Shown in pieces: positions 23,066-54,919 of a stretch of DNA of 64,000 nucleotides. How positions within the stretch are numbered: position 1 is the first letter of the stretch; the number at the start of each line of letters is the position of its first letter. A program made the position numbers and the translations under genes. The notes beneath the pieces were generated by a model. It was not told where the DNA came from and did not search any database. It saw only the letters and a list, made by a program, of their open reading frames with translations. Source of the stretch: Sulfolobales archaeon (lineage in GTDB: Archaea; Thermoproteota; Thermoprotei_A; Sulfolobales; AG1); assembly GCA_038867615.1 (NCBI GenBank), contig JAWBYA010000002.1, positions 192,001 through 256,000 of the forward strand. Direction: 5' to 3'.

Positions 23066-23392
23066 CTATCCGAAGAGAGCTGAAAGTCCTTGCTCCAGCT
23101 CCTCCTCGCTGACCTCTTTCTTCTCCTCTTTCTTCTCCTCCTCTGGCTTGGCTTGCTTCTCCTGCTGTGCTTGTGGTGCCTGTGGTGCTGGGGCAGCAAC
23201 AGCAGCCGCTGGTGCAAAGACAGCTGTTTTGATAACTTCGTCGATGTTTATCTGCTTTACAGCCGCCACCAGGCTTTTCAGCCTTACCTCGTCAACCTCT
23301 ATCCCAGCTGATAATAGGATCTTTCTCACATTATCTTCGCTAATCTCTTTACCCGCCGAGTGTAGGAGGAGGGTTGCGTAGACGTACTCTAT
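23066..23392 (-). CDS. rpl12: 50S stalk protein P1/L12; inferred ATA start
   Basis: (I)[21 protein letters not shown]...EQGLSALFG; GGTGA upstream; in-frame TGA three codons before the ATA. Confidence 0.95.
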
Positions 23393-35321: not shown

Positions 35322-35538
35322 CCTTCTCCTTTCCCCTTACTATGCCGAGCTCCTCCTCCCTCAATATGGTGAGTATTCTAGCAATATTCTTCCTAGTGAT
35401 CTTTATCTTGTGAGGCTTATCAAGAGTCCCCATGGTAGCCTGGGTTCTGAGCTTGGTGAGCTCCACCACTAGATCTTGGAGCGTTCTCAGCTTCTCCTCC
35501 CTAGACATAGACCTGATCTCGTCTGGACTAAGGCTCAC
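35287..35538 (-). CDS. rpl29: 50S ribosomal protein uL29
   Basis: EIRSMS, RKNIARILT. Confidence 0.95.
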   Translation of the reverse strand: MSLSPDEIRSMSREEKLRTLQDLVVELTKLRTQATMGTLDKPHKIKITRKNIARILTILREEELGIVRGKEKGGEGEEKGKQS

Positions 35539-36233
35539 TAACCACCACCTCCAGAACCTCCAGGACTACCACCAGGCTGGGTCTCTGTACTAGCTGGACT
35601 AGCTGGCTGGGCTGGAGCAGCTGCCTGGGGTTGTTGCACGACCTCTATATAGTCAGCCGGTCTTCCAGGCCTTACTATAATCACCTCTATACCATATATA
35701 CCTGGTATTAAAAGCACGTTCGCCACAGCCCTGTCAACTAGGTAGTTGATCTGGTCACCGCTCCTATATATCTTCCCAGCCCTGAGCTTCTCAAACTTAG
35801 CCCTCTCCGAGGTGAGCTTACCACTCACAACAACCTCGGCACCGAGAGCCCCTGCAGCCATGATCCTTCTTAGTGTTATGAAAGCAGCCCTTCTAAAGTG
35901 AAAGCCCTTCTCGAGAGCCACTGCTAGTCTCGATGCCATAACCCTTGCGTTTAGCTCGGGGTTCTCAACACCCATTATTGTTATCTGTGGGTTCTCTATA
36001 CCGAAGTGCTTCTCGAAAACTGTTTGGAGCTTTTTAATAACCTCACCCCTCCTCCCGATCAGTATGGCCGGTCTATCAGCGTATATAATGATCCTTGTTC
36101 CGAGGGGTGTTTTGGTTATCTCAACACCAGCATAGCCAGCTCTAAAGAATACGGATGAGAGGTACTCGTCGACCTTTGTCCTCAGAATACCGAGCTCGAG
36201 GAAATACCTCTTCTTAGAAAACTTTGTCGAGAA
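35538..36233 (-). CDS. rps3: 30S ribosomal protein uS3; start codon non-canonical or unresolved
   Basis: Frame is open from 36248 and reads KRYFLE...VDEYL...[17 protein letters not shown]...[10 protein letters not shown] (KH domain), upstream of the ORF-track Met at 35975. Confidence 0.93.
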
Positions 36234-36234
36234 G

Positions 36235-36714
36235 CTAGCCCACCTCCTTCACAATAACTTCGAAATTAGTTGTTGTAGAAAACCAAGGCGTAGCCCTGCC
36301 AAAAGCCCTTGGCATGTATCTCTTCAAATACCTACCCTTATGGGCTGCTGCATGCACTATAACAAGCTTCTCGGGATCCATACCCTGGTTCTCCGCATTA
36401 CTCCTAGCATTCCTCAGAACCTTTAGAATATATCTAGCAGCCTTGACAGGATATCTACCAACAGGTGTTTTCCACTCCTGGAAATGGGCGTTAACACCCC
36501 TCCTATGGGCTATCTGCTTCCTATGCCTTGTATAGGGTACAGGGGCTTCTTTCCTAACAACCTTTTCGAGATACGCTATGGCATCATCGAGCTTCATACC
36601 CTTTATAACCTTAGCTATCTCCACACTCTCTTTAAGAGAGATCCTAAGCTCCCTCCCAAGAGCCCTTGCAAATCTATCCCCCGGAATCTGGGGGTATGTC
36701 CAGCGGGGCGGCAT
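36235..36714 (-). CDS. rpl22: 50S ribosomal protein uL22
   Basis: [15 protein letters not shown]. Confidence 0.97.
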
Positions 36715-53469: not shown

Positions 53470-53711
53470 CTGTGTGATTCTCCTCATTATGCATTATGAT
53501 TTATAGAAGTATAGATCTAAACCCTAGAATACCATTACAAAAGTACTGCCCACGATATAATCGCTATGACGACCAGGGCAGGGATAATGGGGGCTTTTCA
53601 ACAGAGCCTAGATCTTCAGCTTCGATACTTGAATAACTATAAATACATAGGTAATACGGATCCTGTGAGATACTGTTTTAGATCAAATGGGCTATTACTA
53701 AATAGGTTTTT

Positions 53712-53732
53712 CTCCAAACGATACTAAGGGGC
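53712..53732 (+). promoter_or_regulatory. ORB-like Orc1/Cdc6 binding element overlapping the cdc6 ribosome-binding site
   Basis: CTCCA-AAC-GATAC-TA-AGGGG versus ORB consensus TCCA-N3-GAAAC-N2-AGGGG (one mismatch). Confidence 0.65.
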
Positions 53733-53737
53733 TTCTC

Positions 53738-54919
53738 CTGGAAAGGATAGACGCTATATTTGAAAGGATAGCTTCCTCAAGGGTCTTTATAAATAAGGAG
53801 GTTCTTAGACCCGACTATATACCCGAGAGCCTTCCCCATAGAGAGGGGGAGATCGAGAAAGTAGCCCAAGTACTTGGCTCATCACTCCAGGGGATGAGGC
53901 CTAGCAATCTATTCATCTACGGACTAACCGGGACTGGGAAGACCGCTGTTGCTAAATTCGTGCTCAAGAGGCTCGGGATCAAGGGTAGCGAGAGGGGTGT
54001 TAGGATCTATTGGGTCTATGTCAACACAAGGATCGAGAATACTAGCTATAGGGTTTTATCAAGGATCGGTGAGCACCTCGGGGTTAGGATCCCCTTTACA
54101 GGGTTATCGACAGCTGAGGTCTATAGAAGGGTTATGAGCGCTATGGACTCGAGATCCTCTATAGTGATCATAGTTATGGATGAGATAGACTATATGGTTA
54201 AGAGAGAGGGAGACGAGATCCTCTATAGACTTACCAGAGCCAACGAAGAGCTGGGCTCTTCTAGACTAAGCATTGTTGGTATAACCAACGATATAAAGTT
54301 TGTCGAAACCCTCGACGCCAGGGTTAGGAGCAGCCTTGGCGAGGAGGAGATAATATTCCCACCATATAATGCACAGCAGCTTAGGGATATACTGATGGAG
54401 AGGGCTAGAATAGCATTCAAACCAGGCGCTGTGGGCGAGGATGTCATATCGCTCTGCGCCGCTCTAGCTGCCAGAGAGCATGGGGATGCTAGGAGAGCCC
54501 TGGATCTTCTGAGGGTTGCTGGCGAGATTGCCGACAGAGAGGGGTCTGACAAAGTGCTCGAGGATCACGTGTACAGAGCCCGTAACGAGATAGAGAGGGA
54601 CAGGGCTTCCGAGATCATCTTAACACTACCCATACATGGAAAGCTTATCCTATACTCGATAGTAAAGATTCTTGAGGAGGGTAGAGAGGCAACCACAGGA
54701 GAGATCTATCTAACCTATAGAGAGATAGCCAGAAAACAAGGGCTCGAGCCAATAACACAGAGAAGGGCGAGCGACATAATATCGGAGCTCGACATGGTTG
54801 GAATAATATCCGCCATCACTGTTAACAGGGGTAGGTATGGTAAGACAAGAATTATAAAGCTCCAGGTAAGCCCTGAAGTGATTCTAGAAGCCCTCAAGAC
54901 CGACGGGATCTCTGACTAG
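53738..54919 (+). CDS. cdc6: Orc1/Cdc6 replication initiator; inferred CTG start
   Basis: Conserved IDAIFE...VFINKEVLRPDYIPESLPHRE lies upstream of the ORF-track Met; GLTGTGKT, DEID, HGDAR, winged helix GRYGKT. Confidence 0.95.
   Translation: MERIDAIFERIASSRVFINKEVLRPDYIPESLPHREGEIEKVAQVLGSSLQGMRPSNLFIYGLTGTGKTAVAKFVLKRLGIKGSERGVRIYWVYVNTRIENTSYRVLSRIGEHLGVRIPFTGLSTAEVYRRVMSAMDSRSSIVIIVMDEIDYMVKREGDEILYRLTRANEELGSSRLSIVGITNDIKFVETLDARVRSSLGEEEIIFPPYNAQQLRDILMERARIAFKPGAVGEDVISLCAALAAREHGDARRALDLLRVAGEIADREGSDKVLEDHVYRARNEIERDRASEIILTLPIHGKLILYSIVKILEEGREATTGEIYLTYREIARKQGLEPITQRRASDIISELDMVGIISAITVNRGRYGKTRIIKLQVSPEVILEALKTDGISD

Follow-up and report, generated by a model that had tools for sequence, protein, structure and literature searches.

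The gene for ribosomal protein uS3 (rps3) in a Sulfolobales archaeon has no recognised start codon before its conserved N-terminus, and the same startless junction with the preceding gene, rpl22, is present in every examined member of its genus. The rps3 gene is an intact single-copy gene on which purifying selection acts from the codon 3' of a TTC onward, and this TTC lies immediately behind a strong Shine-Dalgarno (SD) motif and the rpl22 stop codon. Judging from the sequence, we give about even chances to the reading that uS3 initiation takes place at TTC 36233-36231, anchored by the SD and coupled to rpl22 termination. In a wider context, uS3 appears to be the extreme case of genus-wide starts other than ATG, GTG and TTG behind a strong SD. 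The window referred to below is the whole stretch of DNA that was analysed, 64,000 nucleotides in length, and its relevant features are as follows.

36235..36714, reverse strand: rpl22 (uL22) coding sequence, from ATG 36714-12 to TAG 36237-35; Pfam Ribosomal_L22, 1.3e-31
36249..36251, reverse strand: in-frame TGA that opens the uS3 frame, read from the sequence
36241..36247, reverse strand: SD motif GGAGGTG within the final rpl22 codons, read from the sequence
36231..36233, reverse strand: TTC, proposed uS3 initiation codon, separated by 7 nt (GGCTAGC) from GGAGGTG and by 1 nt from the rpl22 TAG
36222..36224, reverse strand: AAG, rival start candidate, 16 nt after the SD, at the position of the relatives' ATG when counted back from KRYF
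36195..36230, reverse strand: conserved segment TCG...GAG coding for the N-terminus, free of table-11 start codons
36183..36188, reverse strand: ATT and CTG, the first in-frame table-11 starts, 3' of KRYFLELG
35973..35975, reverse strand: first ATG of the uS3 frame, behind the KH domain; start of a truncated 145-aa gene model
35538..36233, reverse strand: proposed coding sequence of uS3 (rps3), 231 codons followed by the stop TAG 35540-38
35536..35552, reverse strand: uS3-rpl29 junction, with GGAGGTG 35552-46, 7 nt and the rpl29 GTG 35538-36
23069-23392, reverse strand: P1 (called rpl12 in the earlier note; Pfam Ribosomal_60s), starting with ATA 7 nt after AGGTGA

In this piece of the operon rpl22 is gene no. 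1, the uS3 frame is the +1 frame relative to that of rpl22, and the rpl29 GTG overlaps the uS3 stop by 1 nt. After the opening TGA the uS3 frame reads AGG AGG TGG GCT AGC TTC TCG ACA AAG TTT TCT AAG AAG AGG TAT TTC CTC GAG. Between this TGA (36251-49) and KRYFLELG it contains no ATG, GTG, TTG, CTG, ATA, ATT or ATC, the seven starts listed in NCBI table 11 (standard prokaryotic code), and no near-cognate start of table 11 stands at SD spacing 5' of the conserved N-terminus. That uS3 lacks a recognised start before KRYFLE had been pointed out in the earlier note, the coordinates and statements of which were all correct on this point. The first ATG (35975-73) lies 86 codons past TTC and 91 codons past TGA. 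In the stop-to-stop uS3 frame the two Pfam domains that identify the protein were found above cut-off and in the expected order, KH_2 at residues 25-98 (51.8 bits) and Ribosomal_S3_C at residues 108-191 (85.7 bits), which places the KH domain entirely 5' of the first ATG. The startless stretch is longer than expected by chance: at least 80 codons before the first ATG, GTG or TTG were counted in 26 of the 2233 likely coding open frames of this genome (at least 100 codons long), and the uS3 stretch has the top coding score (0.41) among the 60 listed. It also ranks first among the eight entries returned by a strict screen for a strong SD without a nearby table-11 start. The predicted RNA structure at the rpl22-rps3 junction is unremarkable (z-score -0.35), and a search for Rfam families across the window revealed a single tRNA and nothing else. 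Among RNA sequencing runs, none covered this stretch to a useful extent.

The uS3 gene was present in all 41 related genomes searched, and its junction with rpl22 was examined in 30 loci. The window's genus is startless in six of six genomes (83-100% protein identity), and the other 24 loci carry ATG (18), TTG (3) or ATA (3) according to our own alignment to the M-V-N-I-K consensus. Among 19 loci from a metagenome scan, eight were genus-like, and the startless junction was found in all eight of them. The six genus genomes and the eight metagenome contigs make up the junction alignment of 14 sequences, 10 of them distinct, that is used throughout; as the genus members are related, these do not represent 14 independent events. 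The earlier note had named an alignment of the rpl22-rps3 junction across related genomes as a check, and this alignment finds the junction startless in all 14 sequences. A TTG>TTC sequencing error, the mundane alternative raised at that time, is excluded by the same junction in six genomes and eight metagenome contigs. In addition, contigs from four public runs belonging to four studies show zero differences over 36208-36254, although some of these contigs may come from the source sample itself. A dying gene is equally hard to reconcile with the data: uS3 is single-copy, a second copy was searched for in the genome without success, and the codon-position bias is typical of coding sequence. 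With 10 distinct sequences among the 14 and the contigs of four studies in agreement, the probability of a sequencing or assembly error, or of gene decay, is negligible.

The position at which uS3 coding begins can be narrowed down from the variation among the 14 sequences. Up to its TAG, the final part of rpl22 shows variation in the rpl22 frame, with 2, 4 and 14 variable sites at codon positions 1, 2 and 3, respectively. Over the 13 codons from TTC to GAG the corresponding numbers in the uS3 frame are 2, 2 and 8, and in the 60 codons after GAG they are 13, 6 and 53, so that the phase of variation changes from the rpl22 frame to the uS3 frame at the junction. This third-position variation in the uS3 frame indicates that translation in this frame extends at least from TCG 36230. 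The TTC is invariant in all 14 sequences, and the Phe codons located 4 and 10 codons downstream of it alternate between TTT and TTC. TTC TC is likewise invariant, TCG is variable at its third position alone, and AAG 36224-22 is invariant in 14 of 14. In the comparison with solved archaeal uS3 chains (E 6e-80), query residues 8-204 align from chain residue 5; the K of KRYF is residue 5 of these chains, in which four residues precede KRYF. When TTC is taken as residue 1, query residues 3-196 align from residue 3 of solved eukaryotic uS3 chains. The conserved N-terminal K-R-Y/K-F segment is encoded within the uS3 gene, and uS3 of the genus has three extra N-terminal codons, the insertion point of which is ambiguous. 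As a side observation, uS3 codons 1-8 (36210-36233, reverse strand) resemble a tandem repeat of a four-codon unit (F-S-T-K / F-S-K-K, 8 of 12 bases alike), which may be the origin of the three codons that are extra relative to the sister genera.

There is only a very slim chance that translation starts downstream of this segment, at ATT/CTG 36188-83 or at the ATG of other species, and yields a uS3 without KRYFLE. It is true that ATT and CTG are the first table-11 starts, and that nine genus-like gene calls all begin at or past this point. All nine fetched public models of genus-like uS3 (P0001-P0009, P0035) are N-terminally truncated, starting with M-L-R-T-K, M-D-E-Y-L, M-G-L/I-L-R-T-K or an internal Met (145 aa; P0035), and the P0001 gene call begins at ATT/CTG 36183..36188; the close uS3 homologues are labelled 'Sulfolobales archaeon' by NCBI and the lineage is uncultured. 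However, purifying selection in the uS3 frame acts on the 13 codons upstream, which can be aligned to the N-termini of solved uS3 chains, the ATT/CTG pair varies within the genus (CTT, CTC, ATC or ATG in other members), and no SD lies at a usable distance from it.

For the choice of start codon, spacings were counted from the last G of GGAGGTG, a motif that 13 of the 14 genus-like sequences have kept (L005/L052 carry GAGAGGTG); most other genera of the order likewise show an SD-like motif at the rpl22 3' end. A census was made of the codons behind SD-consensus 6-mers near the 5' end of long open frames in this genome. The combined counts of ATG, GTG and TTG were 39, 41, 55 and 28 at spacings 5, 6, 7 and 8, respectively, and between 2 and 19 at the remaining spacings within 2-13, including 14 and 19 at spacings 3 and 4. 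Genome-wide, these starts peak 5-7 nt behind the SD, with a mode of 7, and a spacing of 6 applies to a studied Pyrococcus mRNA. At the uS3 junction AGC stands at spacing 4, TTC at 7, TCG at 10 and AAG at 16. GGAGGTG followed by 7 nt and TTC falls within the 5-8 nt that separate an SD from the P-site codon, the anti-SD being assumed rather than read because the assembly lacks the 3' end of the 16S gene. The earlier note had described TTC as sharing the 7-nt spacing of rpl6 (GTG) and rpl12/P1 (ATA) and as lying 1 nt past the rpl22 TAG, with GGAGGTG inside the end of rpl22; both descriptions hold, and rpl29 (GTG) has the same spacing as well. In the six genomes of a sister genus the same gapless build of SD, codon, stop, 1 nt and start is found, and its start slot is occupied by ATG in three and by ATA in three. 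In this gapless build the ATG or ATA of the sister genus aligns with TTC and not with AAG.

Exact GGAGGTG occurs at 47 sites near the 5' end of long frames, with ATG, GTG or TTG at spacing 3-10 in 28 of them, CTG, ATA or ATC in 5, and neither in 14, some of which are surely chance motifs. A rule by which any central-T codon serves as a start is unsupported: a central T is found in only four of the 14 GGAGGTG sites without a table-11 start, and no general rule is therefore claimed. The motif GGTGGGCTAG, which is shared by the rps3 and leuA-like junctions, was rejected as a signal since GGGCTAG is common in the genome (787 copies; 11 of the 10-mer).

In the proposed mechanism, GGAGGTG at the end of rpl22 would pair with the 3' end of 16S rRNA and hold the small subunit so that its P site falls 7 nt downstream, 1 nt beyond the stop codon of rpl22. 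Initiator Met-tRNA would be accepted at TTC, where the middle base alone would pair with the CAU anticodon, by a subunit fresh from termination on rpl22 or by a newly bound one. We infer that TTC, rather than a neighbouring codon, occupies the P site, that Met-tRNAi is used there, and that coupling to rpl22 termination helps uS3 initiation; the TAG-TTC gap of 1 nt is within the stop-start distance of coupled gene pairs. SD-forced or termination-coupled reinitiation at TTC, as the earlier note had suggested, is thereby retained with respect to the spacing and the homologous slot, and TTC as the actual initiation codon keeps the rank of a candidate. A perfect SD tether with a stop codon 1 nt upstream would most likely be the setting in which a non-cognate codon is tolerated. 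The counterpoint is that only a single base of TTC matches the initiator anticodon, and that a ribosomal protein needs high output.

Previous studies in other systems bear on the plausibility of such a start. In E. coli, codons that are not near-cognate have been reported to initiate at 0.01-1% of the level of AUG (preprint 10.1101/063800). In the experiments of PMC7907450 drawn on here, a purified E. coli system with IF3 formed no UUC initiation complex, and without IF3 the UUC 70S complexes with initiator tRNA formed at nearly the AUG rate; the rejection of UUC would thus be a matter of proofreading and not of physical impossibility. In caliciviruses the restart by an rRNA-tethered post-termination subunit reaches 8-38% of wild type at non-AUG codons, which the authors ascribe to a relaxed need for eIF1/eIF1A (PMC2793014). 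Termination-reinitiation coupling is also reported to occur in archaea, where it needs overlaps or very short gaps (PMC6728339, PMC10666635). A full-text phrase search for UUC, TTC, UUU or TTT as a start or initiation codon retrieved no natural prokaryotic gene at the level of titles and abstract openings, and in the literature reached by these phrases an essential gene with a start that differs from AUG at two positions appears not to be previously known. A broader reading, to which we assign chances somewhat below even and which is put forward tentatively, is that TTC is a genuine conserved natural start and that the genus has moved start choice from codon-anticodon checking to SD anchoring, with UUC, UUU and GUC as well as ACG, CUG and AUA starting core genes, including that for aIF2-alpha.

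Several other readings of the junction may be weighed against initiation at TTC. It is rather unlikely that uS3 starts at AAG 36224-36222, the ancestral ATG position altered by a single T>A change, with TTC TCG ACA as an untranslated 9-nt spacer. Counted back from KRYF, this codon coincides with the ATG of the relatives (M-V-N-I/K-K-R/K-Y/L-F), archaeal uS3 chains carry four residues ahead of KRYF, the AAG is invariant in 14 of 14, and aIF2-alpha of the genus has kept its start at the ancestral ATG position, as CTG. However, AAG stands 16 nt past the SD, where ATG, GTG and TTG starts are at background, and it shows no excess at spacings 5-8 in the census. TTC TC in the supposed spacer is invariant and TCG changes only at its third position, and the junction of the sister genus aligns ATG or ATA to TTC instead. 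A middle-base mismatch is also the worst near-cognate class in the eukaryotic literature, which counts against AAG. Initiation at another non-cognate codon beside TTC, namely AGC (36236-34, spacing 4) or TCG (spacing 10), or at several codons at once, is improbable; AGC, TCG and TTC each match the anticodon in a single base and spacings 3-4 still hold 14 and 19 ATG, GTG or TTG starts, but the mode of the census is 7 and TTC is favoured by positional homology.

Two further readings dispense with a start codon altogether. A prfB-like +1 shift of rpl22 ribosomes at GGC TAG C, with an L22-uS3 fusion as the source of uS3, would fit the +1 relation of the two frames, the SD directly upstream and the TAG followed by C in 14 of 14 sequences, and is nevertheless very improbable. 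After the shift, re-pairing of the P-site codon is impossible (GGC to GCT; in L050, GAC to ACT), and as uL22 and uS3 belong to different subunits the fusion would require cleavage, a case of which, for a fusion of this type, we know of none. Moreover, the other startless genes lack an upstream gene from which a shift could occur, and the sister genus combines this build with an ordinary ATG. A restart without initiator tRNA, in which an SD-held ribosome resumes with elongator Phe-tRNA or Ser-tRNA so that the protein would begin with Phe or Ser, in the way that poly(U) is translated without factors, is highly improbable and to our knowledge has no cellular precedent. Two candidate genes have Phe and Ser codons in succession at SD+7, which could be taken, speculatively, in its favour; against it, there is no terminating gene ahead of pheS, the MetE-like gene or the MFS gene, and the genome has one ordinary tRNA-Phe only.

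Initiation at TTC is best considered together with other genes of the genus. The uS3 start does not stand alone, a point that the earlier note missed: several core genes of the genus lack ATG, GTG and TTG starts. In 11 of the 17 open frames scanned, uS3 included, a Pfam domain begins 5' of the first ATG, GTG or TTG. The gene for aIF2-alpha, which is a subunit of the initiator-tRNA delivery factor (G000:C2:5438-6268, forward strand; loci L130-L135), has CTG at the ATG position in six of six genus genomes, and the sister genera have ATG; TTT was considered as its start and rejected, CTG being preferred. At one of these loci (L132, G003:C12) the aIF2-alpha match is split into two overlapping pieces (residues 1-248 and 211-276), which suggests a frameshift or an assembly error. 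A MetE-like gene (cobalamin-independent methionine synthase-like; G000:C3:141265, forward strand; L120-L125) has ACG at SD+6/7 in three of six species and TTG or ATG in the other three, and a 1-nt indel in the spacer breaks the upstream frame. P1 begins ATA-GAG-TAC (I-E-Y-V-Y-A), with the next ATG, GTG or TTG 21 codons in, and at SD spacing Rrp4 has CTG and HisG and MoeA have ATT, as read by eye.

The sequence makes pheS a second candidate for a Phe-codon start, having GGAGGTG, 7 variable nt and TTT TCA in six of six genomes from two clades that are just 54% identical; in one genome of a third genus the same spacing occurs directly after a stop. A counterpoint is that an in-frame ATA lies further upstream in six of six, and that the SD letters could encode W-R-W. 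In the MFS gene GTC TCG ACA stands at SD+5/6, and in two of three genomes a TAG immediately precedes it. For a metallophosphoesterase with CTT as the start candidate, the Pfam profile begins three positions earlier.

A number of additional genes were observed in passing. A LeuA/homocitrate-synthase-like gene outside the window (G000:C8:10591, reverse strand; L074-L079), the HMGL-like domain of which matches from residue 4, has in six of six genus genomes no table-11 start before an ATA located two codons ahead of the D-T-T-L-R-D-G-E-Q motif. Its build is an SD (GAGGTG or GGGGTG), 6 nt, an in-frame TAG and GCT TCN; changes in Ser and Val codons are synonymous, and the upstream DNA is intergenic. 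An Orc1/Cdc6 gene (window positions 53702-54919, forward strand) matches AAA+ from residue 44, with the first ATG, GTG or TTG at codon 64 and ATA as the first codon after the upstream stop. HflX (G000:C6:82973, forward strand) has TAT or AGG at SD spacing and no obvious start, and a small gene that appears JAMM/MPN-like by eye (G000:C5:22355, reverse strand) has TTT at SD+8, ATA nine codons later and no obvious start.

The translation machinery itself appears ordinary. The initiator tRNA identified by ARAGORN with introns allowed has A1-U72, a G-C-rich anticodon stem and CAU, and the same search found a single ordinary tRNA-Phe(GAA) and no special tRNA in an inventory that is possibly incomplete; Infernal gave 43 matches and ARAGORN 50 calls, some of the latter being spurious. 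Loss of aIF1 was rejected, as PF01253 is present in G000 (74 bits). The factor was undetected in two of 41 genomes (completeness 81% and 93%), and a comparison by eye with 21 relatives revealed no obvious change. With initiator tRNA and aIF1 both ordinary, no cause of relaxed start selection was found among these components. The 16S rRNA gene (G000:C9:47278-48314) is cut by a contig end; it matches the model in three pieces (4-828, 830-857 and 940-982), which suggests an insertion or intron near position 860-940.

If TTC does start uS3, the identity of the start codon would be nearly dispensable when mRNA-rRNA pairing and nearby termination fix the ribosome. It would be a natural counterpart of the behaviour of E. 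coli in vitro upon removal of IF3, and would offer a natural system for studying how aIF1, aIF2 and initiator tRNA set the fidelity of initiation. Several further core genes of the genus are likely mis-started in public models, and such truncated or mis-started models affect marker-gene alignments and proteome searches for these uncultured archaea.

Among known systems, the closest in outline are genes with near-cognate starts, of which bacterial infC with AUU behind a strong SD is an example. Like uS3, these are essential or core genes without ATG, GTG or TTG that have a strong SD at a fixed spacing and a protein truncated by gene finders. Their codons, however, are one base away from AUG, GUG or UUG, whereas the uS3 frame offers only AAG and AGG, with a middle-base mismatch, and its best-placed codon, TTC, is two bases from AUG. 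At a prfB-type +1 site, an SD-like motif lies shortly before a zero-frame stop that has C as its next base, and the +1 frame is long. The uS3 junction, GGAGGTG GGC TAG C, shares the upstream SD and the weak-context stop in 14 of 14 sequences (GAC in L050), but it has no slippery P-site codon, and its product would fuse proteins of both subunits. Archaeal and bacterial termination-reinitiation pairs resemble rpl22-rps3 in their co-directed genes, a stop/start overlap or tiny gap and an SD in the upstream gene, and differ in their ATG or GTG starts (ATGA and TGATG overlaps), coupling to a non-cognate codon not being found described in the portions of these studies used here (PMC6728339, PMC10666635). 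The TURBS of caliciviruses and influenza B likewise tether the small subunit through mRNA-rRNA pairing just upstream of the stop-start site, and their non-AUG restart codons are reported still to function at 8-38% of wild type; they act, however, on a eukaryotic ribosome through 18S helix 26 and on viral mRNA, where the natural restart codon is AUG and non-AUG codons occur in mutants only (PMC2793014).
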